Shown here: piece after piece, positions 1 to 38,726 of the stretch
Numbering within the stretch: position 1 is the first letter of the stretch
How the letters are laid out: every line of letters starts with the position of its first letter
Source of the DNA: Candidatus Brocadia pituitae
GTDB lineage: Bacteria > Planctomycetota > Brocadiia > Brocadiales > Brocadiaceae
Length of the DNA stretch: 64,000 nucleotides
Reading direction: 5' to 3'
Assembly (NCBI GenBank): GCA_017347445.1
Contig: AP021856.1
Location: forward strand, 750,613 to 814,612
Translations under genes and position numbers: made by a program
The notes under the pieces: generated by a model
Told to the model about the DNA's origin: nothing
The model's database searches: none
What the model saw: only the letters and a program-made list of their open reading frames with translations

Positions 1-863
1 CAGTATCCTACGGTAAACGCAAGACCTTCTCCGCTGCAAATCAACTTTCTTACGGCAAGAATAATTAAGAAGGGCACCCACCAGAGTCCAAAAGACCAAA
101 AAAACAGGGAAACCCCTTTTAAAAACGGGAGGAGGTCAGTCAAAGTGCCCCCTACTGTTTGTATATGCTGGTGCAATACGGCACCCGTAATTGCCGTTAC
201 GGCTGCTGCCCCAATATTCATCCAATAAGGCGAGAGAAGGGTGTTGCTATCAAACTGGTAAAACATCAGTCTTAGGATAAGCAATGCCATAAATATCAGA
301 TACAAGCTTGCCCCTACCGACCAGAGTGCAATTGAAAATACCTGAATGAAGAGCACCTGTTTTATGGTTTGCTCTGCAACGATAATTCCCAGCAAGGCCG
401 TAGATTGAGTGCCCACTGTCGCGAAAAACCATCCCCCATGCAAGACGTCCTTAATCCTTCTGTCTTCTGATTTCTGATTTAAGAAGAGGATACTAAACGT
501 GGAAAGTGATATTATTAACCACAGGCCAATGGAAACATACCAGAATATCTGTGCCGTTGTATGGAAGTGAAACATCCTGGAAAAACAAATGCCAAGAAAG
601 CTTACGGCACCCACAATCGTGAAGAGATAAAGGGTTTTCTCCGGATTCAATATTTCCTCTAAGACGTCTTTAAAGAATAATACCGTCTGTGCTGCCTTAA
701 AAATAACCACAGAGAAGAGTATGGCTAAACTTGCAAAAAAAAAGTAAGGGACAATTACCTCATAGCCATACCACTGAGTAAGAGAAGCAATCATAATCGT
801 AGCCATAACGGCAGTAAACCAACGGGTGTCCAATGAATAAGTTGCTATCTTTAGTACGCTCAT
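1..863 (-). CDS. TDT (TehA/SLAC1, C4-dicarboxylate/tellurite-resistance) family anion channel, 3'-truncated by the window edge
   Basis: Absent from the ORF track because it has no stop in the window. Manual translation from ATG 863 gives MSVLKIATYSLDTRWFTAVMAT...LHGGWFFATVGTQS...SPYWMNIGAAAVT, collinear with the 4239..5333 paralog. Confidence 0.9.
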   Translation of the reverse strand, partial: MSVLKIATYSLDTRWFTAVMATIMIASLTQWYGYEVIVPYFFFASLAILFSVVIFKAAQTVLFFKDVLEEILNPEKTLYLFTIVGAVSFLGICFSRMFHFHTTAQIFWYVSIGLWLIISLSTFSILFLNQKSEDRRIKDVLHGGWFFATVGTQSTALLGIIVAEQTIKQVLFIQVFSIALWSVGASLYLIFMALLILRLMFYQFDSNTLLSPYWMNIGAAAVTAITGAVLHQHIQTVGGTLTDLLPFLKGVSLFFWSFGLWWVPFLIILAVRKLICSGEGLAFTVGY

Positions 864-972
864 AAATCACTCAGCATAGCTGCAAAGAAAATTCATGTTA
901 ACTGTTGAAAACTGATAAATTCGGATTTCGATGTTCAAATTTCGGATTTGACTCAGGGGGTACTCCTTCTCC

Positions 973-2175
973 CTAAGTTACCCCCACAGCTTTTTTCGTA
1001 TGCATCTTTGGTATGGTCTTTTCTTCCATAAACGAGAGACACATAAGGCACACAAGGGAAACGAAGATAAATCCTAAAGAATAATTGTTCGTATAATCCC
1101 TGAGGGTACCCAGCATAATGGGAAGAAAGAATCCACCGAGACCGCCAGCAGCGCCTACCATTCCTCCAACAGCGCCAGTATCTTTGGGAAAATACTCCGC
1201 TACCAGCTTAAATACAACGCCATTCCCGATACCCAGACAAACACCCATCAAGTAAAAGATGGTGAGTGAAGTCATTAACAACACATTCATATTCAGGAAA
1301 ATGAGTATACCGAGTATCGCTATTGAGAGGACGATTAAAATGCGTCTTCCGGGGATACGATCACCAAGATAACCCCCCAGGATGCGGGAAAAGGTTGTGG
1401 CAAACACAAATATTGATGTGAGACTACCAGCCTTTACGGGGGTTAATTTATAAAAGTCCCGGAGGTAAGAAGGCAACCATAATGAGAAGGTAACAAAGAA
1501 TCCAAAGGTCATGAAATAAAACAGGCAAAAGATCCAGATGAGGTTAGAAGACTTGTATACCTTTATTTTATCACGAAAGGTTGGAGGTTTTATGTTGACG
1601 GGTTTTGGCGCATCTGCAGAGAAAAACCAGTAGACAAAGGCCATTACGAGTAATGGTATCGCGTAGATCATAAATACCTTGTTCCAGCCGAAAGACTCCG
1701 CAAGAAAAGGCGCTCCAAATGTGGCAGCGGCAGAGCCTATATTTCCAACGCCATAAATCCCTAATGCCAACCCCTGTTTTTCTTTTGGATACCACTGTGA
1801 AACTTGTGGAATCCCGATGGCGAATGACGTCCCTATGATACCGAAAAAGAATCCACAAACCAGCAGAAACCCGTAACTGTGCGCAAAGCTTGCCATAAAC
1901 ATGGGGAAAAAGCCAAACAGAAGCAGCACACTAAAAACACGTCTGCCACCAAATTTATCCGTTAAAACGCCAATCGGTACCCTGGCTATAGAACCAAGCA
2001 GCACCGGGGTTGCCAGGAGTAATCCTACGGATGTTGAAGACAACTTAAAGTCTGCTTTCATGTAAACTGCCAGGGGGGAAAAGAGTGTCCAACCTGCAAA
2101 ACAGGTTGCAAATGCAATGGTTGCAAGCACGAGTACCCTCAGATTCCCTGTTTGTACCTGAACAGCCGGATTCAT
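973..2175 (-). CDS. narK: NarK/NNP family nitrate/nitrite MFS transporter (copy 1)
   Basis: 12-TM pattern; both signature Arg present (GSIARVP, FSRILGGYLGD); glycine-rich nitrate signatures GIYGVGNIG and GGMVGAAGGLGGF. Confidence 0.93.
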   Translation of the reverse strand: MNPAVQVQTGNLRVLVLATIAFATCFAGWTLFSPLAVYMKADFKLSSTSVGLLLATPVLLGSIARVPIGVLTDKFGGRRVFSVLLLFGFFPMFMASFAHSYGFLLVCGFFFGIIGTSFAIGIPQVSQWYPKEKQGLALGIYGVGNIGSAAATFGAPFLAESFGWNKVFMIYAIPLLVMAFVYWFFSADAPKPVNIKPPTFRDKIKVYKSSNLIWIFCLFYFMTFGFFVTFSLWLPSYLRDFYKLTPVKAGSLTSIFVFATTFSRILGGYLGDRIPGRRILIVLSIAILGILIFLNMNVLLMTSLTIFYLMGVCLGIGNGVVFKLVAEYFPKDTGAVGGMVGAAGGLGGFFLPIMLGTLRDYTNNYSLGFIFVSLVCLMCLSFMEEKTIPKMHTKKAVGVT

Positions 2176-2397
2176 AATAGTATCTCCTAAAATTTCAGTT
2201 TAAAAATTTACGTAATAATGGATGGGCATCTCATTCTTTAACTTTTTCCCAGTAACATCATCAGGTGAGGTATATTCAAAAATCTTTGCCCCAAGACTGT
2301 TGATGTGAAAAATGATTCCGTCGTAAGAAGGTTTATATTCAAACCATGCTTTGGTTTCTTTTCCGTTAATAAGAGATTCTGATTTATGAGATATTTC

Positions 2398-3816
2398 TTA
2401 TGGTTTTACTTCCCAATTTGGCACAGACTCAGACCCTTCCGGCGTTTGGTTGTCATCACTTTTTACAGTTTCACTTTCCACATTCTCAGGGGAAGTGTTT
2501 CCAGGTTTGAAAGTGGGTAACACCCCCTTAAACTTAGAAATATTATCCTTAATAAAGTCTTCGTCTCTTTGCGTCACAATCGAGCCAAAAACGCTTAATG
2601 GATTCTGCACTTTATATTTCTGCTCCCGAAGATATCCACGTTCTTTTCTCAATTCGTAACCATCGATGATGGCTATTATAAACCCCACCATAATAATGCC
2701 GGTTACACCCAGAGCTGTCTTCGTTGGCAGGGACATGCCTTTCAGCACGCATCCAGTCGAAAGCTTCCGGCAAATTAACATTGCGAGGATAAAAGCGGGA
2801 ATTATCATTGCGACCATAAGCGGTCGTATCAGCGAATTAATATTATCTACTACACCAAGAGCCTCATCGGTATCCATTTCCACAATGAGCCCCATGTTTA
2901 AGTCTTTAAGCCATGTCCACGCACCCACGACCTTTAACCCATCATAATCTCTGTATCCCTTTAAATCATAACCGGTGGTTTTCCCCGTAATGCACCGTTT
3001 CACCCCTTTTGTCAGTAAGGTTGTAGTTGGATCCGCTACTTTATGACATGTCCTGCAGATATCATCGGTATTTTTGATCTGGTCTGAGAATCTCGATTGT
3101 GTGATCATGATACCGTCTTTGTTTACGAGATAAGCTTCTCCCGTTTTTCCCCAGGCAACATTTCTCATGCCGTTATTGAGCATGGACGCATCCATCCATA
3201 ACAAAACCGCACCAATTACATCGTGATTTCCCCCCTTAATCGGATAGGAAATAAAGAGAGAAGGTGAATCATCCGCTTGGCCGCCATCCGCAGCAGTATT
3301 CAAAGAATAGTGGATCACATCAGAGATGTATGTTTTGCCGTCGTATAACGTCTCCTGCACATTCCTGAATGGCTTTTCTTTTAAAATATTCACGCCAATC
3401 AGGGATTTTTCACTTTCGGTTGTTAGGTGGATTGTTCCTGCGGCATCACAAATAAATATCCCTTTATAGCCGTAATCTGCCTTTGACAACTCTAACTGTG
3501 TTTTTAGTCTTAAATATTCATGTTCACTTCTTCCACTTGCAAGGCTTACAAAATCCTCATCACCGCGAATAAGGAATTCACTTTGAATCGTGTCGGAGAT
3601 AGCCCTGGCATGTGACGTTCTTTCGTCCCACAGTAAGACAAGCATATCTTTCTGCTTGTTTAAGAATCCCTCCAGATTTCGTTGAACACCCACCATCAGT
3701 TCTTCGCTTGCCTTTGGAAATGCAAGCATTTTAAACAAAATAAGGGGAAATAGCCCTAAAAACACAAACATGGCAACAATAAAAACCCTGCCTTCCTTAA
3801 ACATCTTATTTATCAT
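2398..3816 (-). CDS. Membrane-anchored Cache-domain protein with c-type heme motif, no recognisable output domain
   Basis: N-terminal TM, Cache-like segment (WGKTGEAYLVNKDGIMITQSRF...YRDYDGLKVVGAW), CRTCH motif, then two more hydrophobic helices and a low-complexity tail. Confidence 0.8.
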   Translation of the reverse strand: MINKMFKEGRVFIVAMFVFLGLFPLILFKMLAFPKASEELMVGVQRNLEGFLNKQKDMLVLLWDERTSHARAISDTIQSEFLIRGDEDFVSLASGRSEHEYLRLKTQLELSKADYGYKGIFICDAAGTIHLTTESEKSLIGVNILKEKPFRNVQETLYDGKTYISDVIHYSLNTAADGGQADDSPSLFISYPIKGGNHDVIGAVLLWMDASMLNNGMRNVAWGKTGEAYLVNKDGIMITQSRFSDQIKNTDDICRTCHKVADPTTTLLTKGVKRCITGKTTGYDLKGYRDYDGLKVVGAWTWLKDLNMGLIVEMDTDEALGVVDNINSLIRPLMVAMIIPAFILAMLICRKLSTGCVLKGMSLPTKTALGVTGIIMVGFIIAIIDGYELRKERGYLREQKYKVQNPLSVFGSIVTQRDEDFIKDNISKFKGVLPTFKPGNTSPENVESETVKSDDNQTPEGSESVPNWEVKP

Positions 3817-4238
3817 ATTCCACCTTTTCTCATTGAATTCTCTTATGTGAAGTAAACTATTTTATGTTTAAATGTTAAATTCGTTAATACATGCTGCGAC
3901 ATCTTCCATCTTAATCATTTTACCAATTTAACCGGAAACAGAATTCGTTTCATGGTTAATTTATAGCTAAAGATATAATTATATAATATACAATAACATA
4001 AGGCAAATAACAAAATTAAATACGTGGAAACAATTTGGTTGCAATTTGTATTAATAAGCAAATGCGAACGACTTAAAGGAATTGCAACTCAAAGAACTAA
4101 TAAAATTTTTGGAAAGATAAGATTTGAAAGGCAAAGGGTTATGCTGAAATGACGTGGGGTAATGAGGAGAATTTTACCTAGCGTGATTACGCAATCTTAA
4201 CTTCACTTCTCCATTGCCCGTTAGTTTTTGTAGACCCA

Positions 4239-5333
4239 TTAGCCCTTGGCGATATTAGTCATCTGAGGTTGAACAACATTCTCATCTTTCATTTTAGGGG
4301 TTTCTTGTGCGATAGCCGCTTTTATCATAGAGATGATCATATGAATAAAGATAAAGATCCACGCAATATAAGCCACATAGATAAAATATTTTGATATAGT
4401 AGCGATAAAGGGAATCTGGATTGCCTGAGAAAGCTTTATGGTGCATGCAGTGTACATGCCTAAAGGGAAGACCATCGCCCAATAGAGCGAACTGTATTTA
4501 AATGGGGTTTTGTGAATGACGTATTTCCATACCCCAATAATTATCAAAAATGGTAACCACCAGGTGCCGAATGACCAGAAAAACAGGGTAAGTCCTTTTG
4601 TGAAACCTAAGAGATCGGTATAGGGACATGCCACTTTCGGAATATTGAGACAAAGCGCAGAGCCTGCCAGGGTTGTGATAGCGAGGGCGCCCATGTTTAT
4701 CCAATACGGCGGTACCAATGCGTCGGGTGATATCTTAAAAAACACGAGACGATAAATGATGAGCGTAATCAAGACCATATAAAGGGATGAACCAATCATC
4801 CACCATACAAACGAGGAAAATATTACAAAGCTACCACCGGTTCCAAATTGGGGCGCAAGTATGGCGCCAAGAACTGCGACAGATTGCGTTCCTACGGTTG
4901 CAGTTAACCATCCGCCATGTAATACCATCTCAATCCTTTGCTCACAGGCAATAAAGAGAATGCTGAATGTGGATAGCGAAACAATCACCCAGAGAAAAAT
5001 ACCAAAGTACCAAAATGCCTTTGCAACTTCCGGGTGGTTAACAACGATGGCAAACTGCGATCCCAGCACATTTGTACCCGCAACGGTGGTAAAAAAGACA
5101 AGGCTTAGTCTTGGATTGGAAAGATCGGCGTAAAGGTTATTCCAAAACAGCATTACCCGGAGTATCTGTAATAATAAAACAATTGCATAGGCAACGATGT
5201 TCAGATAAAAAAGCCCGTAACTAATTCCGGTGAAACCCAGCAACTTGGCTGCAATGGAAATTATTCCGGTAGACATCACCATTGCAAAATAGGCTGGGTG
5301 AAAAGTCCTGATGGTATTATGAATAACACCCAT
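4239..5333 (-). CDS. TDT (TehA/SLAC1) family anion channel (copy 2)
   Basis: HPAYFAMVMSTG N-terminal motif, about 10 TMs, YWAMVFPLGMY gate-helix motif. Confidence 0.92.
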   Translation of the reverse strand: MGVIHNTIRTFHPAYFAMVMSTGIISIAAKLLGFTGISYGLFYLNIVAYAIVLLLQILRVMLFWNNLYADLSNPRLSLVFFTTVAGTNVLGSQFAIVVNHPEVAKAFWYFGIFLWVIVSLSTFSILFIACEQRIEMVLHGGWLTATVGTQSVAVLGAILAPQFGTGGSFVIFSSFVWWMIGSSLYMVLITLIIYRLVFFKISPDALVPPYWINMGALAITTLAGSALCLNIPKVACPYTDLLGFTKGLTLFFWSFGTWWLPFLIIIGVWKYVIHKTPFKYSSLYWAMVFPLGMYTACTIKLSQAIQIPFIATISKYFIYVAYIAWIFIFIHMIISMIKAAIAQETPKMKDENVVQPQMTNIAKG

Positions 5334-5460
5334 TTGCGTTCATCTCGCCTTGTTAAAAAGATTAAGAATATGGCACAATAATTGGCAACATTCTATCTGA
5401 TAGTAATGAAGTTTTGCAATCCTTTATTTTGTCGTGTCAAATTTTTGATTCAATGCCTAA

Positions 5461-6183
5461 CCAGGATTTCTCACCGATATGTGAGGCAAACCTCCCTATT
5501 TATGGTATAAGATGTTTGTAAGTAACAGATTATGCACAACAAGAGGAGGGATGAAGGTGAAAACAGGGTGTACCGATGCAATAGAATATCAGGAGTTAAG
5601 CGGAGGGAAGGTAATATCGGGATTTTTAAAGGAGGGCAAATAACAACAGACGCTGGTGGGTCTTTTCCTGAGAGAAATAGAACAAGCACGAGGCTTCATG
5701 AAAGAGTTTTCCAAGTGCTTTAGCGATTATCGTCAGTGGCGTATGTGTTACTCAACGAATTAAGACGGGTAGGGCTTTGTTCAACAGAATTCTCACAGGC
5801 ACAGTGCAACACAATCCGTACAAAACTGCTCAAGATTGGCGCACAGGTGAAGGTAAGCGTAAGGAGAATAGCCGTTTGTTTGTCCAGCGCTCATCCCTCT
5901 AAAGAAATCTTTCAGCTTGCGTTCCAAAACATTCGCAAAGCGTATCCCATGCTCTGCTGAGGTTAAGAAAAGGTTTACCCGTGGAGTATGATTGCTAAGC
6001 CGGAGGGGAGCGCTACGCCAAAAATATGCCTTTTTGCGGTATGTCCCGGTGATAGTATCAGTGAAATCATGAAACTATTCATTTTTATTGCAGAACAACC
6101 GAAAAATCTATCCGATAAAGCAACCTTGTAACGCATCCTGAGACCTTTTGATATCACCAATTACCCTCCGTGAAAAATGCGGT
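5461..6183 (+). mobile_element. Internally deleted, non-autonomous IS1380-family element (723 bp)
   Basis: Ends CCAGGATTTCTCAC and GTGAAAAATGCGGT (imperfect inverted repeats), flanks CTAA/CTAG. Frameshifted transposase N-terminus (FKGGQITTDAG...FSKCFSDYR) is joined to the C-terminus (AYVLLNELRR...IRTKLLKIGAQVKVSVRRI). Confidence 0.85.
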
Positions 6184-6522
6184 CTAGATTGCGATCTCAC
6201 CTGACTCATTAGTACGAACACGGTAAACGTTTTCCACATGATAAACAAATATCTTCCCATCGCCAATACTCCCCGTCTGAGATACGTTGATGATGGTATT
6301 AACGATATTATCCATATCAATATCTTTTACGGTTATTTCAAGTTTGATCTTTGACAGCAGATCAATCCGAAATCTTCTCCCTTGCCATACCTGACTTACG
6401 CCCTTTTGAGTACCATGTCCGGTAACCATGGTAACAGTCATTCCGGGATAACCCAACTCTAATAAAGCATCTTTTACGACATCAAATTTATCCGGCCTGA
6501 TTATTGCTTCTACTTTTTTCAT
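6184..6522 (-). CDS. glnB: Nitrogen regulatory PII protein (GlnB/GlnK family) with divergent T-loop
   Basis: 112 aa, aligns without gaps to the canonical PII sequence; Q39, K58, GDGKIF and RVRT conserved. Confidence 0.95.
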   Translation of the reverse strand: MKKVEAIIRPDKFDVVKDALLELGYPGMTVTMVTGHGTQKGVSQVWQGRRFRIDLLSKIKLEITVKDIDMDNIVNTIINVSQTGSIGDGKIFVYHVENVYRVRTNESGEIAI

Positions 6523-6730
6523 AATAAAGCCTCCAATCCATTGAACTTTATCCGATGTCTAATTGGTTGCACTAACAACATTAGCTATGGGGTCTATCAT
6601 CCTAATTTTCCCCTATTACTGTATTATCCATCTCCAAACGTCAAGTTTTGCCTTGCGATTATCTTTGCATCAAACATTCGTATTCATAATCTTCTCTGAT
6701 TCCATTCTGTACACATTTGTATTCTTGTCA

Positions 6731-6759
6731 TTGACATAGGATACTTCATGATGTATACT
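6731..6759 (+). promoter_or_regulatory. Sigma-70 promoter of narK copy 2
   Basis: TTGACA (6731-6736), 17 bp spacer, TATACT (6754-6759). It overlaps the track's ATG at 6748, so the true start is ATG 6814 with RBS AGGAG at 6801-6805. Confidence 0.8.
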
Positions 6760-6813
6760 ATTTCAAGTATATTATCGGTTACTTTACGAAAAGGAAATAA
6801 AGGAGAATTATTT

Positions 6814-8037
6814 ATGAATATGGATGTGTCAGCGAACGAATCGACGCAAACACCCGATGGCAATACGAGGGTAATGATACTTGCAACCGTAGCATTTGCG
6901 CTATGTTTTGCCGGTTGGACCTTGTATGCTCCATTAGCAGTATATTTTCAGGATGAATTTAAACTGTCTTCCACTATGGTGGGATTATTACTTGCTACCC
7001 CGGTATTGCTTGGGTCCCTCGCAAAAATTCCTATGGGTATACTGACAGACAAATATGGAGGAAGGCTCGTTTTTACGATTATGCTCCTGTTTGGGTTTGT
7101 CTCTCTTTTTTTTACCGGTTTTGCCCGTAGTTATAGTCTTTTGTTAGTGTGTGGACTCTTTTATGGTTTAATAGGTTCCTCCTTTGCTGTCGGAATTCCG
7201 CATGTTTCAGGATGGTATCCGAAGAAAAAGCAAGGCCTTGCATTAGGGGTTTATGGTGTGGGAAACGCGGGCACTGCACTTTCCGCATTTGGGGCGCCAC
7301 TCATCGCAGAATCAATGGGATGGGATAAGGCATTTATTTTTTATGCATTTCCGTTACTTCTTATGGCATTTATCTACTGGTTTTTCACCTCCGATGCCCC
7401 AAAACCGGCGAATGTAAAGGTTTCAACACTGGGCGACAAACTAAAACTCTTTAAATCTTCCAGACTGGCATGGATCTTTTGCCTGTTTTATTTTATGTTT
7501 TTTGGATTCTTCGTATGCTTTTCGGTATGGTTACCATCGTATTTATGTGATTTTTATAGTATTTCACCGATAAAGGCCGGCAGTTACACTTCTATATTTG
7601 TATTTCTTTCAGCTTTTACCAGAATTTTAGGCGGTTATCTGGGTGATAAATTCAATGGAAGAAAAATAATGATACTCCTTACCGTAGTTGTACTTGTCGT
7701 AGTGGTGTTTCTCAATTTAAACTTGACACTAGCAACCTCACTCATGGTGTTTTATGTTATGGGAACTTGTCTTGGTATTGGCAATGGTGTCGTTTATAAA
7801 CTCGTGGCAGAATACTTTCCGAAAGACACGGGGGCTGTGGGCGGCCTGGTTGGTGCAGCAGGCGGTCTTGGAGGGTTCTTTCTTCCTATAATTTTAGGCA
7901 CGATTAAGGATTATACCGACAATTATTCCCTCGGATTTATCTTTGTTTCCCTCGTCTGCCTTATGTGTCTTTCGTTTATGGAGGAAAATACCTTGGCGAG
8001 CACAAACCAAAAAGTGGCAAATCCAATGCAGGCATGA
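6814..8037 (+). CDS. narK: NarK/NNP family nitrate/nitrite MFS transporter (copy 2)
   Basis: Close paralog of 973..2175; start reassigned from promoter and RBS; first signature Arg is Lys (GSLAKIP). Confidence 0.93.
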   Translation: MNMDVSANESTQTPDGNTRVMILATVAFALCFAGWTLYAPLAVYFQDEFKLSSTMVGLLLATPVLLGSLAKIPMGILTDKYGGRLVFTIMLLFGFVSLFFTGFARSYSLLLVCGLFYGLIGSSFAVGIPHVSGWYPKKKQGLALGVYGVGNAGTALSAFGAPLIAESMGWDKAFIFYAFPLLLMAFIYWFFTSDAPKPANVKVSTLGDKLKLFKSSRLAWIFCLFYFMFFGFFVCFSVWLPSYLCDFYSISPIKAGSYTSIFVFLSAFTRILGGYLGDKFNGRKIMILLTVVVLVVVVFLNLNLTLATSLMVFYVMGTCLGIGNGVVYKLVAEYFPKDTGAVGGLVGAAGGLGGFFLPIILGTIKDYTDNYSLGFIFVSLVCLMCLSFMEENTLASTNQKVANPMQA

Positions 8038-8698
8038 GATGAAGAAGGAAGAGTTTAACGTGCATCAGAGTGATGACGGGAGTTGGACTGCATTCGAGCC
8101 GTCTGGTATAAGACGGCTCGAACCAAAGTTTATCTATAGTGTGCGTCTTATATAAGTATACATGAAAATACCCATTGCGAACAGAGCAAAGCATTCCCTG
8201 TCTTAGAAGTTGCTTTGCTCTGATCGCATGCTGCTTTTTTTGTTGTTTACTATAATTTCGAATGGGCTTCCGCATGCGAGAGTTCAAATCAGGAGATGTG
8301 CTTACATGATGCAAGTTTGTTTCTTTAATTCTAAAGACATTTATCCTCCTGCAGGTTCAGGATGAAAACGAGATACGTACAAAACCGATCTTGGTTAGCC
8401 TTTTGCGCGGGATTTGTTGAACGCTTGTCAGACTATAATGGGCGGAGAACAAACTCTTGCTATGTCAGGGTAGGGCATCTTTGCTGCTTGGATGTTAAAA
8501 AATTTTTAAACTGACAATTCATATACAACAAATTATTTATTAATAATAAAATTAGAATATCTCTTTCTGATGGTGAATGAAATGGGGTAAAAAACAGGAT
8601 TTTTCGTAACAGTTTAGTTTTTTGAAAAAATAGGGAAATTTGAACCTACGCAGAACCATTCGTGGACGTTTTGAATAATAGGGGGTTGCCTGAGTCTC

Positions 8699-8822
8699 TA
8701 GTAAACGCATTAATTAAATTGACATGTGCTGGTCATTATGCGAGTACCTTCGCTTTGCTCAGTGTAAACTCCGCGAAGCAATCCCCCGATAAAGATTGCT
8801 TCTGGCTAAGCACCCTCATAAC
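8699..8822 (+). repeat. Palindromic REP/MITE-like element, family A (degenerate copy)
   Basis: Shares TAGTAAACG..TTAA..TGACATGTGCTGGTCATT..GCGAAGCAATC..AGATTGCTTC with 33215-33316. Confidence 0.75.
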
Positions 8823-8851
8823 AACAACTTTCTTTAAGCGTTTACGATAAT

Positions 8852-9574
8852 GTGGCAAATTATATGAATAAAAAAACATTGACACTATCTGCTTCAAAAG
8901 ATTTAAAATTAGGTGCATTGTTAACATTCATCGGAGTTAATCTTCGGTTTGTCGTAGGAAACATAATTCACGGCCTTATCTATTTTAATTTTCTTCAGTC
9001 TGGCAATCATGAACATAGGTATGAAGTGCACGTACCAAATCTGCCAGATATGTGCGGAGATATAGCAATAATGATGGTTTTTGCCTCCGCATATTTTTTC
9101 ATTACAGCCGGTTCTGTAAAGAAACGAAGAAACGGTAGTGCTGATAATTTTCCCCTGACGAATGCTCAAGATTTACCGCCCGTTGGAGAATCAATGTCTT
9201 GGGTAAAATCCCTCTTTTTTATAAGCATCATCGGTTTTGGTTTGTATTTTTTTTCAAAATATTTTTTTTCTATAGAACTAGAGACATTTTTTGAAGAAGA
9301 TGAGGAATCTGGCATCTCATTTATTTTGCATATTACAAACTACTTGGTCAGGTTATGTTCAGTTTTTGCTTTTGTTACCGTTTATTGCAGATATCTGTCA
9401 TTGAAAAGAACCACGACATTACTACTTTATGTTTTCTTTTTTACACGGTTCCTTTTTGCAACCAATATGCTCGAATTTGTCCATACCTATGATTTATATA
9501 TCGGTGCTTCTATTTTGGATTTTTTAACGCCCATTTTGATTGTTTATTCCATGATCAGTCTATTTATAATCTGA
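8852..9574 (+). CDS. Hypothetical multi-pass membrane protein
   Basis: 240-aa ORF with several hydrophobic segments; no family recognised; start uncertain. Confidence 0.5.
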   Translation: MANYMNKKTLTLSASKDLKLGALLTFIGVNLRFVVGNIIHGLIYFNFLQSGNHEHRYEVHVPNLPDMCGDIAIMMVFASAYFFITAGSVKKRRNGSADNFPLTNAQDLPPVGESMSWVKSLFFISIIGFGLYFFSKYFFSIELETFFEEDEESGISFILHITNYLVRLCSVFAFVTVYCRYLSLKRTTTLLLYVFFFTRFLFATNMLEFVHTYDLYIGASILDFLTPILIVYSMISLFII

Positions 9575-9951: not shown

Positions 9952-10554
9952 GTGCAGGTCAGAAAAGCTACAGCGATCAGGAGGCAGCAGATTGTAGATA
10001 TTATACGGAACATTATTTCTTCCAAGGGGATTGAATATGTTACCATAAGCGAAATAGCGGGAAAAATAGGAACTACCAAAGGCGCTATTTATCGGCATTT
10101 CAAGAGCAAAAGAGATATATTAAGCCTGCTTATAGATAACATTGAGGAAACTCTCATGGAAGCGCTGGATAGCGCAATGGTAGAAAAGGACCCAATACAG
10201 AATCTTAAGAATATTCTTTTTGCTCAACTTATTTTAGCAAAAAACCGACGTAAAACATCCTTTGTTGTTATCATGGGGGCTATACAGTTTAGTGATCCTT
10301 TTATCCGTAAAAAGATTTTAAAATTGATACAGAAGTATCTCCGGCGGATAGAAAAGTTGCTTCTGAGTGCAATAGGACTTGGATTACTAAAACGAGATAT
10401 TGACCCCAAGATATCTGCTATTGTATTTATGGGTCTCATTCAGTCTACCATAACGGTGTGGTCTTATAAAAATTTCAACTTTGCTCCTCAAAAAATCCAC
10501 GCCCATCTATGGAATGTTTATTGCGAGGGAATAGGAGTTTCGTCTGATGCGTGA
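9952..10554 (+). CDS. TetR/AcrR family transcriptional regulator
   Basis: HTH VTISEIAGKIGTTKGAIYRHFKSK; GTG start with AGGAGG RBS. Confidence 0.93.
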   Translation: MQVRKATAIRRQQIVDIIRNIISSKGIEYVTISEIAGKIGTTKGAIYRHFKSKRDILSLLIDNIEETLMEALDSAMVEKDPIQNLKNILFAQLILAKNRRKTSFVVIMGAIQFSDPFIRKKILKLIQKYLRRIEKLLLSAIGLGLLKRDIDPKISAIVFMGLIQSTITVWSYKNFNFAPQKIHAHLWNVYCEGIGVSSDA

Positions 10555-14094: not shown

Positions 14095-17000
14095 ATGGTT
14101 TGGAAGTGTGTCGTGCGTAAAAGGGAAAATAGGATTGTCCTTGTTTCTTTTTCTCAAATGAGATTCTTTCTCTCTTTGAGTGTCTGCTTGTTATGGTTAT
14201 GTACGTGTGTGAATGCACAAGCACAAAGTGCTGAAAAAATGGATGTCGAAATAAAGCTTTCGGAAAAGGGCGTAATTGTAAGAGGTGAAGATTTTCAGAA
14301 GGCAAAAATAAGAGATGAAGAGATCAAGGCTGCAGCCTCAAAGTCGATAGAAGAGATAAATTCTTCTATTGCCAATGTAGAGCGTGACGTAAAAACAATG
14401 AGTATCCATCTTGAAAATCTCAAGCAGGAAAGAATGGATTGCTCGGGCAAGGACGTCAGTCAGAAATTTTTAGAATTACTGGAGAAGGAAATTGCCATTG
14501 TTCAGGAAAAGATTGATATCGACCATGAGCAGATAGAGACCTATAAAGACCGGATCGAGGTGCTTCGTGATCAATCAAAAGCTCATGACGAGATCGTGGT
14601 ATTGTTAAAGTCGATCCTTGGGCTGGAAGAGATCCTTTTGACTTCCCATGAACATGCTCCGATTGTGAAAAAAGAGGCAGAAATTGCAAAAAATTATATC
14701 ACCGCAGTGCAAGCCAGTATTAAAGAAAAGGAATCAGTCATCGTCTTTTTTACCAATAGATTGGAAGAGATTAAATTAAAGGTATCCGAAGACGAAAGAA
14801 AACTTGCAACGTATTTAGGATCTCTGAAAATGGAAATAGCGGATACCGGGCATGTTACTCCTTTACAGGAAAAGATTGAGAGTATTTTATTGTGGAAAAA
14901 AGCCATTGGCGCTCAGTGGATTACCATATTTGAAACACGGCTGGGTACGTCTAAGATCCGGTACGATAAGACGCTGATGGAATTAAAGAATGCAGAATTC
15001 AATGCGGCGTTTTTAGCTGAAAAGGCAAAGCGTTTGGAAGAAAAGGTGAAAACGGAAGAATTAGTAAAAAAACAGGAAGAATTGGATGCGGCGAAAAAGG
15101 CCGAGGAGGAAAGCCGGAAAATTGCTGAAAGAACGAAGGCTGAAGTTGAAAAGACCTTGCAGGAAGCGGCAAGGAAAAGTGAAGAAATTGCCCTGGAACA
15201 AATGACAACAACTTCCCCGGAAAAGAAGCGTATATTAGAGTTAGAGGCTGATATCCACAAACAAGCCGGGCTTGTTGCCAAAAGAAAAGAAGAACTTATT
15301 ACCGAGGGTGCGCAGATATACAAAGACTTTACCGAATACAAAAAGTTAGAGGCGGATATCGGCCTTTTATTGAACAGGGGAGGAACAACAAAAGAGATCG
15401 ACGAATCACTCATAAAAATAGAGACGGACATGAAGCGGTTCTCTGAGTCAATTTCAGCAGTGGAAAGCCTTCTCCCCCTGATAAAGGAAGAGAAAAAACT
15501 CATTTCCGAAAATATTGTTAAATCTAAAGAGGAGATAGCAAAAATCAAAAATGAAGCGACCTCTTTCACGGACAAAGAATTGGCGCGTCAGGCAATAGAG
15601 CATGCAAACCATATCATGAAAACGCTGGAAGAACAGGCTGAACTTCTATCTACGAGACTGGACAGATTACAGGAACGACGGAAAATCAAAAAAAATACAC
15701 TCCTCCTGCTGGAAGAGACCAAAGAAAAATTGATTACCCTGAAAGCAGCCAATGTTTGGATGAGAGTAGAAAGCACGATTTCCTTCCAGACAATCCAATC
15801 GGTGTTTAGTGATTTCGTGGATTGCTATAACCGGCTTGATTCGCTCTATCAAATAATTCCTGCACAGACAAAGAATTTCCTATCGTATATCTCCACTAAA
15901 AGGCTTTCATTTGCTTTCTGGATAAGATTCTGTGGATTAACAGGACTCATTGCCGTGTGGTATTTTTCAAAAAAATACCTTCGCCGGTGGAGCACGTTCA
16001 AAACACAGGCATGGTATGAAGCGTCAGACATATCTTACTATAAATCAAGGCTTTTTCCCAGCCTTTTCATTGTGCTCCAGAAGAGTATAAATGCCATATG
16101 GCTGGCTATCCTTTCCGTATCTATACCCGGTATTCTGGGTATAAAAGCCCCCGTAATAACAGGGACAATATATGTATTAACCTTTCTTGCGGTATATAAA
16201 ATCCTAAGACACCTCCTTTTTGAGTCTTTTAGCCCTGAAAAAGGGGATAGAAAGTTAGTCACCCCTTTGGCATATATTTCTCGTACACATCTTTATAAAT
16301 CATTAAATGTCATTGTATTGTTTTCCTTTGTTTCTTTGTCACTCATAGCCGTTCTCACTACGTTTGGATACAGAAATGATGTAGTCGAATTGTTCTGGTA
16401 TGTATACCGGATGGGGATTTTAATTCTTTTGCTATGGCTCGCAACACAGAAAACACTGATATTCAAATTGCTGCCGAGCGCCGAAACTCAATTTGGCAAA
16501 TTTATTCACCGCATAATAACGGTAATCTATCCCGTTTTTATTACCTTTGTTGTATTGTTATTTGCGATAAGGACTCTCGGATATCCGGTACTTTCCTATG
16601 TGTTATTAAGGACATGCATAAAGAGTTTTATCATCGTGTTTATCGCTTTCTGGGTATGGAAATATTTGTATCATCGTTTGGTTTACATAAGAGAAAAGCG
16701 TCTTAAGAGAGACAACCTCAAAAAAGACAGTCCTGAGGAAAAAAGATTTGGTGCGGTTACGGTGATCTATCATATTTCACTGAACTACCTCGTTTCACTT
16801 ATCGCAGCAATAATTGTTATCCGCCTATGGATCACGACCTTTCGTGATGCGGTAGGTTCCCCGGCGGCTCCTTATCTGGTCCAGAAGATATTTGGGCAGA
16901 TAGGGATAATTTTCGGGGCTATTGGCAGTGGACTACGGTATCGTTTCTTCCTGGAAGAAGGAAGATATACAACACCGATAAAGATTATCATAGCGTTATT

Positions 17001-17808
17001 TGTACTGTTTATATCCTTTTTTGCCGCACGGCATATAAAAAAACTGTTTGAGGAAAAGGTATTTTATAAGCTTCGTCTGGAACGCGGACTGAAGCAAACA
17101 CTCTCTACCCTGACACGCTATGTCATCATTGGTATCGCAGCACTGATCGGCCTCAGTATAGCCGGAATTCCCTTAAGAAGTCTGGCTTTTTTTGCAGGCG
17201 CTTTTGGTATTGGTATCGGGTTTGGCATGCAGAACATCATCAGCAACTTCGTTAGTGGTATCATCCTGCTCTTTGAGCGTCCCATGCGCGTTGGAGACGT
17301 TATCACCCTGGATGATGGTACCGTGGGTACCATCGACAAGATCAGCGCAAGGAGCACGACGCTTATTACCCCTGATGAGGTCACCATAACGGTACCCAAC
17401 TCAAAGTTTGTCGAGAGCAGAATAAACAACTTAACACATCCATCATCTCGTCTGAGAGGTTCAGTAAAGGTGGGAGTCGCATATGGCTCCGATGCCGCAT
17501 TGGTCAAAAAGTGTTTACTGGAAATTACCCGGCAAAATCCGAATGTAAGGACCTATCCGGAGCCATTCGTGCGGTTCTCCGAATTTGGTGATAGTGCGCT
17601 GAAATTCGAATTATATTTCTGGGCAGATGATCCGGGGAAACGTTGGTTTACTATGAGTGAACTCAATTTTGCTATTGATGAGATATTCAAAAAGAATCAT
17701 ATCAAATTTGCCTTTCCTCTGCGTGACGTTCATATCCGTTCTATCACACCTTATAAGAGTGAAATGATACAGGAGCATCTGCATGTAAAAGAAGATGAGA
17801 ATGGGTAA
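14095..17808 (+). CDS. Large MscS-family mechanosensitive channel (MscK-like) with long coiled-coil periplasmic region
   Basis: C-terminal MscS core (GIGIGFGMQNIISNFVSGIILLFERPMRVGD...VPNSKF); about 530 aa of helical coiled coil; multiple TMs. Confidence 0.92.
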   Translation: MVWKCVVRKRENRIVLVSFSQMRFFLSLSVCLLWLCTCVNAQAQSAEKMDVEIKLSEKGVIVRGEDFQKAKIRDEEIKAAASKSIEEINSSIANVERDVKTMSIHLENLKQERMDCSGKDVSQKFLELLEKEIAIVQEKIDIDHEQIETYKDRIEVLRDQSKAHDEIVVLLKSILGLEEILLTSHEHAPIVKKEAEIAKNYITAVQASIKEKESVIVFFTNRLEEIKLKVSEDERKLATYLGSLKMEIADTGHVTPLQEKIESILLWKKAIGAQWITIFETRLGTSKIRYDKTLMELKNAEFNAAFLAEKAKRLEEKVKTEELVKKQEELDAAKKAEEESRKIAERTKAEVEKTLQEAARKSEEIALEQMTTTSPEKKRILELEADIHKQAGLVAKRKEELITEGAQIYKDFTEYKKLEADIGLLLNRGGTTKEIDESLIKIETDMKRFSESISAVESLLPLIKEEKKLISENIVKSKEEIAKIKNEATSFTDKELARQAIEHANHIMKTLEEQAELLSTRLDRLQERRKIKKNTLLLLEETKEKLITLKAANVWMRVESTISFQTIQSVFSDFVDCYNRLDSLYQIIPAQTKNFLSYISTKRLSFAFWIRFCGLTGLIAVWYFSKKYLRRWSTFKTQAWYEASDISYYKSRLFPSLFIVLQKSINAIWLAILSVSIPGILGIKAPVITGTIYVLTFLAVYKILRHLLFESFSPEKGDRKLVTPLAYISRTHLYKSLNVIVLFSFVSLSLIAVLTTFGYRNDVVELFWYVYRMGILILLLWLATQKTLIFKLLPSAETQFGKFIHRIITVIYPVFITFVVLLFAIRTLGYPVLSYVLLRTCIKSFIIVFIAFWVWKYLYHRLVYIREKRLKRDNLKKDSPEEKRFGAVTVIYHISLNYLVSLIAAIIVIRLWITTFRDAVGSPAAPYLVQKIFGQIGIIFGAIGSGLRYRFFLEEGRYTTPIKIIIALFVLFISFFAARHIKKLFEEKVFYKLRLERGLKQTLSTLTRYVIIGIAALIGLSIAGIPLRSLAFFAGAFGIGIGFGMQNIISNFVSGIILLFERPMRVGDVITLDDGTVGTIDKISARSTTLITPDEVTITVPNSKFVESRINNLTHPSSRLRGSVKVGVAYGSDAALVKKCLLEITRQNPNVRTYPEPFVRFSEFGDSALKFELYFWADDPGKRWFTMSELNFAIDEIFKKNHIKFAFPLRDVHIRSITPYKSEMIQEHLHVKEDENG

Positions 17809-36784: not shown

Positions 36785-38726
36785 TGGTGGGCGCTAGCCC
36801 TAAAACAAGCGAGGTTTTAAAACCTCGCCTGCAACCGTAATTTTTGATCTATTTCTAGCACTATTTTGAAGCACTTTTTCTTGGCAAAGGCGTTTTTTGC
36901 TCTCTCATCTGGAGAAATAATCCATTTATGTGGGAAACAACACTTTTGCAGTTGAAATTCACGAAAAATCACAGACTCAGGACATACCTTCCCCTTATCC
37001 GCATCCCGTGTGCTTCGTCTCCTGCCTCTTGCAGACAGACCAGATTATTTTAATCCTCAATTACGCACATTTAAGTCGTCGGATTCGTTCCCACGTCTCA
37101 AAAAAATCTTTCAGCCAATCATTGTATCCAAGCACACGATACACAATCTTTCTGCCTGTCCTGAGTATCTGACAGGGCAAGAATATCAGAGAGTTCAGGA
37201 ACCGCCTGAACTCCATTTTCACTACCTGTGTTCCCCTCCCTTCGTTCGGCATCAAGAGCCCAAACCACGCCTTCAAATTCCACGCCAACGCAGCCATCAC
37301 CATATATGCCCAGTTGCTTTCCAAATCCCTTACCGGCATCCTCATCGCATTTACCCCATTCTTCAATTGCTCTATCACATTCTCCTGATTGCATCGTTCA
37401 TTCGCCAATTCCACTACCTCTTGTGCCGTTCTATCTCTGAGTGTTGTTATATAAAAAAAGTATCGAATATCGTCTATCAACGCCTTCTTTCCCTCTTCCA
37501 CCGTCAGATTCTTTTTCAGCGCCACCACACGATACCCCTTTTTACATTTTCCCGGTTTATATTCAAATTCCGCTACCCATTCACTCTCCAATCGGATATT
37601 CTTGTAGCCCTTCTCTTTGACTATTTCCTCTTTTACGTTCTCCGGTTTCTGCCTCTGCTGCGTTTTTACCGAATTCTTCTCTTTCCGCTTTAATGCCTTC
37701 CATGCCTCCTTGGGCAATTCTTCCGTACATTTTATCAGACAAGCATGGGCATCCATCCTAAAGACAAAGTCCGCCTTCTCTGACCATCTGTCAAAATTCC
37801 CGGTCAATGAAAAGTCCGTATCCCCACGAATACATACCCCTTCCGCATTTGCTTTCACCATCTCTATCGCACGATCTATCCACCCTGCCGCCCCATCGTG
37901 GCTCGCTACGTTCCCAGAACGATTTACCACATACAACACCTCTTTCGTATTTGCAAGCGACAAAATCAGCGGCGCATACCCCCATATCCCCTTATACGAT
38001 ATGCTCATCCCGCCCTTGCATTCTCCATAGACACCCGCTATCGTCCCATCCACATCTATCAACGCCACTTTAAACTTCTCTTTCCTTCCTTCTTTCCACA
38101 CCCGACTCCTCACCGTGTTTATGCTTTCCATGAGATTCCCGATATCCTCCGGCGTAAACCGCCTCGTAAAATCACCCGCCGTTGTCGGATCCGGTATCCT
38201 TTGCGCTCCCACCGCATTCAGATACCCCTCATTACTCCTGTTCAACTCTCTATCCTCCAATCTCATCCCACCAGCATATTGTACGCTATATTCAACACAT
38301 GGTCTGATTCATGGTATGGCACATGTGCCTTCAGTAGCTTTACCTTTGCATTTATCTCCTCTACCAACCCACACCTCTGCACCATCTGATGGATCGCTCC
38401 TATACCACCACAATTGATCGCCTGACTCTTCTCCGCCACCTCGTAATGGATATTTCTCCCCTTCAACATCGGACTCTCTTGATCTTCCCACTGCTTCCTC
38501 TTCAGCCGCCCCTTGATTTCCTGTTTCCTTCTCTTCAGTATTCTGCTATACTGACGTTGTGATTTTTTGCTCATCTGAAATGCCCCTTTTTCTGGTTAGT
38601 AAGATTTTCACGTATCCTTATTTTGACCAAAAATCGGGCATTTCAACCATCTTCACCTCTCTCTGCAAAATTATCACGCTTGTGTTAGGGCTAGTGGATT
38701 CGAACCACTGATCCCTTGCGTGTGAA
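36785..38726 (-). tRNA. 3' half of tRNA-Val(CAC) (att-like fragment), interrupted by IS1380; not a functional tRNA
   Basis: Removing the IS and one CTAG gives minus-strand TTCACAC-GCAAG-GGATC-AGTGG-TTCGAAT-CCACT-AGCGCCC-ACCA (anticodon loop to CCA); no D-arm or 5' acceptor strand upstream. Confidence 0.85.
36798..38690 (-). mobile_element. IS1380-family element, 1893 bp, frameshifted transposase
   Basis: TIRs CCCTAAAACAAGCG / CCCTAACACAAGCG; perfect CTAG target duplication (36794-36797, 38691-38694); DDE transposase split into 38263..38574 and 37061..38266. Confidence 0.95.

Follow-up and report, generated by a model that had tools for sequence, protein, structure and literature searches.

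Plant channels of the SLAC1/SLAH type, members of the TDT family (PF03595), conduct nitrate, and in this family the pore is occluded by a gate phenylalanine on the ninth transmembrane helix (TM9), F450 in SLAC1 and F262 in TehA. In NarK of Escherichia coli the arginines R89 and R305 bind the substrate, and haem c occurs in the periplasmic sensor domains of chemoreceptors such as Geobacter GSU0582/GSU0935 and Desulfovibrio DcrA. Genes that can be likened to each of these lie within the first 8 kb of a 64,000-nucleotide (nt) stretch, hereafter the window (G000:C1:750613-814612), of the complete, single-contig, 4.075-Mb genome of Candidatus Brocadia pituitae, an anaerobic ammonium-oxidising (anammox) bacterium. 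They comprise two NarK-like genes that belong to the major facilitator superfamily (MFS), two TDT/SLAC1 genes (PF03595), a gene for PII and one for a membrane dCache protein carrying the motif CRTCH. Throughout, G000 denotes the analysed genome, other G numbers the genomes of relatives, and L numbers fetched loci.

On comparative evidence, the haem-Cache, NarK1 and TDT1 genes form, in that order, a conserved anammox operon that is newly recognised here. The reading favoured, with a probability of about 0.6, is that three separate anammox anion-transport units lie side by side in this genome, that NarK1 is an exchanger, and that TDT1 and TDT2 pass nitrite and/or nitrate. No TDT appears in the main survey of nutrient transport in anammox bacteria, which names Amt, PII, FNT/NirC, HPP and NarK, and the presumed direction of NarK in anammox is reversed relative to E. 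coli, with nitrate out and nitrite in (PMC7438415). Literature searches found no paper tying TDT to nitrite/nitrate transport in anammox, and nothing relevant for anammox with TehA or tellurite or for narGHJI with tellurite resistance. The preliminary description of this DNA, made from its letters, had nevertheless gone too far in calling a TDT route for nitrite and nitrate unrecognised: according to PMC12815253, the Nitrobacter genome papers (Starkenburg 2006, 2008) list TDT proteins as putative nitrite/nitrate transporters, so that the idea already exists for nitrite oxidisers. A predicted NsrR site at E. coli tehA, whose regulation is disputed (PMC5320621, PMC2884951), is not used as support.

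The genes of the window were identified by a listing of open reading frames (ORFs) combined with family scans. All six genes named in the preliminary description (two opposed narK genes, two TDT genes, a PII and a haem-c Cache) were found within 8 kb, with NarK1 and TDT1 adjacent and co-oriented as it had held; lengths below are in amino acids (aa).

1..863, minus strand: TDT1 (418 aa; PF03595 E 1.8e-36), last gene of the operon, its in-window reading frame listed at 3..863 and the gene running 394 nt past the window start; full gene at L006:11607-12863
973..2175, minus strand: NarK1 (400 aa; TIGR00886 best family at 248 bits), middle gene of the operon
2398..3816, minus strand: haem-Cache protein (472 aa; dCache_1 40.5 bits), first gene of the operon
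3043..3057, minus strand: CRTCH codons (residues 254-258), a CXXCH haem-c attachment motif; the only match in the window, with 0 expected in shuffles
3978..4006, minus strand: sigma-70-like promoter candidate 5' of the Cache gene (TTGCCT-17-TATAAT, 10/12 positions)
4239..5333, minus strand: TDT2 (364 aa; PF03595 E 1.3e-51)
5458..6182, no strand assigned: mobile-element junction of repeated-element fragments, with genome copies at 83-98% identity
5736-5960, plus strand: C-terminal relic of a DDE_Tnp_1_4 transposase (PF13701 E 7e-18, profile positions 365-433 of 435)
6184..6522, minus strand: PII (PF00543 E 5e-29)
6748..8037, plus strand: NarK2 (TIGR00886 231 bits), likely true start near 6814
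9952..10554, plus strand: TetR-family regulator (Pfam TetR_N)
14095-17808: MscS-family mechanosensitive channel (1237 aa), adjoining the TetR/NarK2 module in relatives too

Evidence for the operon comes from relatives, 40 of which were searched with TDT2 and NarK1; 20 neighbourhoods were fetched and the window proteins mapped onto them. NarK and TDT1 stand side by side on one strand in 21 of the 25 genomes that belong to the same family (a count that includes G000 and one genome whose TDT1 is a pseudogene). The pairing recurs in two other anammox families, and across the three the two genes hold to the same order and orientation even where protein identity falls to about 50%. Every Brocadiaceae locus with room for all three genes has Cache, NarK and TDT1 adjacent and co-oriented, and the Cache gene lies 5' of NarK1 in 17 of the 18 Brocadiaceae and Scalindua loci with room. 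The three-gene order is likewise found in another genus, in a 4.4-Mb single-contig genome (L046), and in a Kuenenia metagenome-assembled genome (L048). In Scalindua (L019, L049) Cache and NarK are followed by a fused tandem TDT-TDT gene, and in the third anammox family (L020, L021; genomes of 2-2.5 Mb) a TDT gene directly precedes NarK, with no Cache gene. The Scalindua orthologue of TDT1 (L019:8026-10407, L049:6001-8124) joins a pair of TDT cores in a single reading frame of about 793 aa.

Within G000 the spacers measure 422 nt (TDT2-Cache), 222 nt (Cache-NarK1) and 109 nt (NarK1-TDT1), and those between NarK and TDT1 in relatives are often only about 1-40 nt. No terminator-like sites were found between the operon genes, in scans that were not enriched over shuffles; the promoter scan overall was not enriched over shuffles either, so that the site 5' of the Cache gene is a candidate only. 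The two genes are also absent together: genomes with no NarK orthologue have no TDT1 (G024, which is 100% complete, G022 and four Scalinduaceae). In a phylum-wide sample of Planctomycetota, PF03595 occurs in 10 of 11 and 2 of 4 genomes from two anammox families versus about 19 of 285 others, and NarK stands beside TDT in none of those roughly 19. Judged by these gene neighbourhoods, the NarK-TDT1 pairing is far more than chance. TDT genes unlinked from narK in relatives had been named as grounds for refutation; TDT1 is instead linked to NarK across anammox families. The Cache gene, which had been listed simply as a neighbour, is present and is in fact part of the conserved unit.

Both TDT proteins belong clearly to PF03595 (TDT1 126 bits, TDT2 176 bits, cut-off 27.9), and both fall under the 237-bit cut-off of the TIGR00816 'tdt' subfamily (49 and 92 bits); they are 36% identical to each other. 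Sequence searches of the PDB did not reach TehA or SLAC1, whether begun from TDT1, from TDT2 or from a TDT1 profile, and the fold was therefore shown by modelling instead. An AlphaFold2 model of TDT1 built on a 45-sequence alignment (predicted local distance difference test, pLDDT, 83; predicted template modelling score 0.77) has ten long helices plus a beta sheet. The top 24 Foldseek matches to it are all SLAC1 or TehA, with AtSLAC1 and HiTehA at probability 1.00 and a template modelling score (target) of 0.78-0.80, and no other protein matches significantly. As modelled, then, TDT1 has the SLAC1/TehA fold. It consists of a TDT core (about 1-344) with Phe292 at the gate position and a C-terminal beta domain (about 358-418), and its core is intact, with the family-invariant residues present. 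A broad profile aligns the TM9 motif W-x3-F(P) with SLAC1 F450, giving F292 in TDT1 and F289 in TDT2, at a weak E of 0.99; the TDT2 motif reads W-x3-F289-P-L, and in TDT1 Ala replaces the Pro after the gate Phe.

The C-terminal beta-sheet domain is conserved in TDT1 and missing from TDT2, and it should be cytoplasmic because of homology with the SLAC1 topology. Modelled alone (pLDDT 75), it returned cystatin-like matches at Z 7.8 or below, the usual noise level. DUF6504 matches it weakly in 14 of 15 TDT1 orthologues (best E 5e-4, below cut-off), and an Atlas feature search placed it at 0.91 to DUF6504 clusters; DUF6504 is a lead only. Homologue scores fall from about 340 bits in Scalindua to 135 bits in the next relative, and by this measure the TDT1 clade with its added domain is anammox-only. 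A quick maximum-likelihood tree puts TDT1, TDT2 and the TDT of the third anammox family in one group (support 100) beside nar-linked clades, with TDT1 on a long branch (1.68) next to TDT2, which points to a duplication within the anammox lineage. A third type of TDT exists in some Brocadia (L126; G008:C3:82615-83628 and others), 43% identical to TDT2 and grouping in the tree with TDT of the Omnitrophota that is linked to narGHJI; G000 has none, and the rest of its 4.075 Mb contains no further PF03595 or strong NarK-like gene.

The relatives of these proteins outside anammox are also informative. The TDT alignment was scanned over one genome per species and the 80 nearest loci were kept; the 66 of them that are non-anammox (35-46% identity to TDT2) were selected as closest kin and do not sample the family at random. 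Fifteen of the 66 have narI and narH no more than 6 kb away, in most cases as a co-oriented series narH-narJ-narI-TDT; they come from Anaerolineae, Chlorobiota, Chitinophagaceae, Ignavibacteriota, Omnitrophota, Bryobacteraceae, a gammaproteobacterium, a deltaproteobacterium, Lentibacillus and Obscuribacteraceae (the last with narI and NarK only). An MFS gene stands beside TDT at 13 loci, both signature arginines being confirmed in 11; three of the 13 were scanned against NCBIfam, with NarK the best family at scores below the TIGR00886 cut-off. Two loci have a NasC-like assimilatory nitrate reductase beside TDT, and one Methanoperedenaceae locus has a Nar-like type-II DMSO reductase. In the Acidobacteriota L065, L074 and L086, and partly in a fourth, alternative complex III, TDT, a NarK-like MFS gene, MoeA and a multihaem cytochrome are combined on one strand. 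Nitrate-related neighbours thus occur at no fewer than 25 of these 66 nearest loci, in many phyla; links of TDT to nar or narK are independent in at least seven phyla other than that of the anammox bacteria, and those linked to nar are spread over the sister clades of anammox TDT. In one clade (L062, L068, L071, L083, L105) a dCache-HAMP-HisKA_3 kinase and a NarL-type response regulator precede TDT; these kinases were considered as kin of the anammox Cache protein and rejected (hhalign probability 0.9%).

The first gene of the operon encodes an unusual partner. Its CRTCH lies inside a membrane dCache domain that scores slightly below threshold (dCache_1 40.5 vs 45 bits), and family scans found no kinase, methyl-accepting chemotaxis protein (MCP), GGDEF or other output domain. 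Of 13 orthologues, 11 retain the motif C[RK]TCH; the protein also has a conserved charged tail. In the remaining two (L025:9475-10860, L026:4107-5519) the haem cysteines are lost, in one by a 9-residue deletion and in the other as FRTFH with the His kept.

NarK1 and NarK2, 69% identical, both fall short of the TIGR00886 trusted cut-off (248 and 231 vs 311.7 bits), yet that family is by far the best for each. The solved structures closest to NarK1 are NarK/NarU (4U4T, 4JR9, 4IU8; E 2e-18 to 4e-16), followed by DgoT (7.5e-12), and its residues R65, R264 and N145 align with the E. coli NarK signature and are kept in all orthologues. NarK1 is accordingly classed by sequence as an NNP-type MFS nitrate/nitrite porter and a predicted exchanger. 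Throughout the NarK2 clade Lys takes the place of the first substrate-binding Arg, and the two-Arg feature is only partly present there.

That the cluster forms one doubled locus, as the preliminary description supposed, is contradicted by relatives, in which TDT2 and the PII/NarK2 pair belong elsewhere; here they are recent neighbours. TDT2 is unlinked from NarK in most relatives, and its ancestral context, seen in six genomes (L137-L140, L050, L055) and thereby in most of the Brocadiaceae fetched, is comM followed by co-oriented TDT2, FNT and FNT; this block continues with a small ORF and lpxB. The FNT block of G000 itself (G000:C1:12156-18164, L142) is intact and has no TDT2; TDT2 was therefore relocated, in the common ancestor of G000, G001 and G013, to a site 5' of the Cache gene. 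As far as gene neighbourhoods tell, each TDT paralogue of anammox bacteria has, or once had, a gene for nitrogen-oxyanion transport as its partner. In other Brocadia the NarK2 module (loci L128, L129, L131-L135) consists of a divergent PII gene and, on the other side, a Cache paralogue (Cache2), NarK2 and TetR; Cache2 is lost in G000 and its three closest relatives (G001, G005, G013), so that PII abuts NarK2. PII lies 5' of Cache2-NarK2 or of NarK2 in G001, G005, G008, G013 and G014, G003 shows a short stretch of partial similarity, and TetR adjoins NarK2 in nine of the ten loci fetched (L127-L136, all but L135). In Scalindua OFTM1 (L059:5349-7047) a TetR homologue, 70% identical to window 9952-10554, lies directly 5' of TDT2, a hint that one regulator may serve both the NarK2 and the TDT2 unit.

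The seam between the units can be located. The relative G001, with proteins 97-98% identical in this region, carries window 1-5460 on one large contig and 5727-13796 on another, and synteny breaks at about 5460/5727, at the mobile-element junction. The transposase relic within it was considered as kin of the intact insertion sequence (IS) at 37061-38266 and rejected as unrelated. The clustering of all six genes in 8 kb is specific to G000. On this comparison the doubled locus is a local accident, in which three separately conserved units were joined by a translocation and an IS-marked rearrangement.

Around these units the annotation of the flanks extends over 14 kb upstream and, inside the window, from position 1 to about 25,000. 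To the left of TDT1 lie a convergent argJ and housekeeping genes. The 850 nt between PII and TDT2 hold no ORF, NarK2 diverges from PII, and a promoter-like site (6731-6759) overlaps the first ATG of NarK2. An Rfam scan of window 1-9000 gave no match. The 1237-aa ORF at 14095-17808 was considered as NxrA or NarG, which was ruled out by its membership of the MscS family. The PII protein (PF00543 101 bits, below both NCBIfam PII equivalog cut-offs) has Phe at position 51, the place of the modifiable T-loop Tyr of GlnB and GlnK, and may be a variant dedicated to transporters.

From these arrangements TDT1 and TDT2 are probably SLAC1/TehA-fold channels or carriers for nitrite and/or nitrate. What the preliminary description offered as a conjecture about such a route thus gains comparative support from the NarK-TDT1 linkage, from TDT2-FNT, and from the nar, nasC and narK neighbours elsewhere. 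The stoichiometry of anammox metabolism would give the route a purpose. The cell would take in far more nitrite than the nitrate it sends out, and because several nitrites enter per nitrate leaving, a 1:1 NarK exchanger alone could not balance the traffic; a conductive TDT route would therefore complement strictly coupled NarK exchange. Such a TDT would let the membrane potential move surplus anion out of the negative cytoplasm, either as nitrite entering the anammoxosome or as nitrate passing to the periplasm, since the cytoplasm, as the most negative compartment, would drive anions through a channel into either neighbour. The haem-c domain of the Cache protein, given where such domains mature, would have to face the periplasm or the anammoxosome lumen, and might sense nitrite, NO or redox state; having no output domain, the protein would tune NarK1 and TDT1 by direct contact. 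PII/NarK2, with Cache2 lost, would be a paralogous module, and TDT2 the ancestral partner of tandem FNT nitrite/formate channels. A bolder proposal, for which the odds are long, is that the Cache protein, NarK1 and TDT1 form a complex in the anammoxosome membrane acting as a sensor-gated nitrite valve, the haem-c Cache reading nitrite, NO or redox state on the lumen side and directly gating a SLAC1-type conductance beside the nitrite/nitrate exchanger. If so, the valve would set nitrite supply and limit nitrite toxicity with no transcriptional step, and the Cache protein would be a one-component, output-less sensor regulating transporters by contact.

Several observations weigh against the assignment of nitrite and/or nitrate to these proteins. 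Carriers of malate (Mae1) and of sulfite (Ssu1) belong to the TDT family as well, and to our knowledge TehA has no clear substrate; the function of the TDT subfamily is a prediction for every member, and the membrane that holds the TDTs, the direction of flux and the choice between channel and carrier are pure inference. Leu replaces the gate Phe in the TDT1 orthologues of Kuenenia and G017, and TDT1 changes fast (55-78% identity within the family vs 81-88% for NarK1). The annotated flanks (14 kb upstream; window 1 to about 25,000) contain no nxr, nar, nas or nir genes. G003 has lost NarK1 and kept TDT1, with TDT2 adjoining it, the TDT1 of G007 is the pseudogene mentioned above, and in five genomes from the third anammox family NarK occurs with no TDT; the pairing is thus not obligatory. 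Nor is covalent haem universal, in view of the two Cache orthologues that lack CXXCH, and the FNT neighbours of TDT2 may carry formate, not nitrite. Some of these points lend themselves to a different substrate, and it is conceivable, if rather unlikely, that the TDTs carry another small anion (formate, chloride, bicarbonate or sulfite) for charge balance, pH or osmotic homeostasis accompanying the traffic in nitrogen oxyanions. The malate and sulfite carriers would fit this, as would FNT partners from a family that also carries formate and hydrosulfide, a TauE/SafE gene included in the Chlorobiota nar-TDT operon, and the large MscS-type channel near the NarK2 module. The linkage is, however, specifically one with NarK-like genes and with nitrate reductases (Nar, NasC-like, Methanoperedens Nar-like), and it recurs over many phyla. 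Several narGHJI loci, moreover, have no NarK-like gene within 6 kb of TDT (the region 5' of narG lying outside those loci), and TDT1 is found only where NarK is present, with G003 the sole exception.

The rapid change of TDT1 could instead signal a change of role. If TDT1 were mainly a regulatory or sensing partner of NarK1, transceptor-like and part of a membrane signalling complex with the output-less haem-Cache, its long branch, its faster change than NarK1, its gain of a conserved soluble C-terminal domain, the replaced Pro of the F-P gate motif and the Leu in two lineages would all find a place. An intact TDT core with its family-invariant residues and a confident channel-like model argue otherwise, as do TDT2 and the nar-linked relatives, which show the same genomic associations with no extra domain, and this role is improbable. 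Least credible is a meaningless adjacency arising from neutral hitch-hiking of membrane protein genes. It could draw on the recent rearrangement that produced the whole 8-kb cluster and on the separation of TDT2 from NarK in most relatives, but it is already disfavoured by a NarK-TDT1 order and orientation conserved to such low identity over three families, and by the independent links in other phyla. Transport of nitrite and/or nitrate by TDT1 and TDT2 remains the preferred reading.

These results bear on how nitrite enters, and nitrate leaves, a cell of three compartments. A near-universal, anammox-enriched family of SLAC1 type, wired to narK and to tandem focA, is a candidate for the missing conductive route, and the haem-Cache is an unusual sensor to accompany a transporter pair. 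More broadly, the findings add weight to the view that one TDT subfamily may be a prokaryotic nitrate/nitrite transporter family, which, if true, matters for the annotation of denitrifiers, nitrite oxidisers and Methanoperedens, and may help to explain the nitrate permeability of plant SLAC1/SLAH channels. What is new here is the haem-Cache, NarK and TDT1 operon, the anammox TDT1 clade with its added domain, the TDT2-FNT-FNT linkage and the recent assembly of the doubled locus.

Among described systems, TDT1 resembles plant SLAC1/SLAH3 and HiTehA in belonging to PF03595, in its predicted ten-helix fold and in the TM9 W-x3-F placed on gate F450, although TDT1 and TDT2 share just 12-17% identity with SLAC1 and HiTehA and have no significant PDB match by sequence. 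Unlike plant SLAC1, TDT1 lacks the N- and C-terminal phospho-regulatory regions, has a C-terminal beta domain of its own (about 60-75 aa) and carries Ala, not Pro, after the gate Phe. NarK1 shares with E. coli NarK/NarU both substrate-binding Arg and the NS1 Asn, whereas it is shorter by about 70 residues and does not reach the trusted cut-off of TIGR00886; NarK2 differs further in the Lys found at the first Arg throughout its clade. The Cache protein is like GSU0582/GSU0935 and DcrA in its membrane anchor and in a CXXCH within a PAS/Cache-like extracytoplasmic domain, but unlike them it has no HAMP, MCP, kinase or cyclase output and is the first gene of a transporter operon. The Nitrobacter TDT listed with NarK is likened to the anammox proteins by its published listing, not by subfamily placement. 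Also close are the narGHJI-linked TDT proteins of diverse bacteria and archaea, which share the subfamily neighbourhood of the anammox TDTs in the tree and are likewise paired with NarK-like porters and nitrate/nitrite enzymes. The anammox TDTs differ from these in having no adjacent reductase or oxidoreductase and in taking as partners NarK, a haem-c Cache and, for TDT2, FNT, and TDT1 differs again in forming an anammox-only clade with an added domain.

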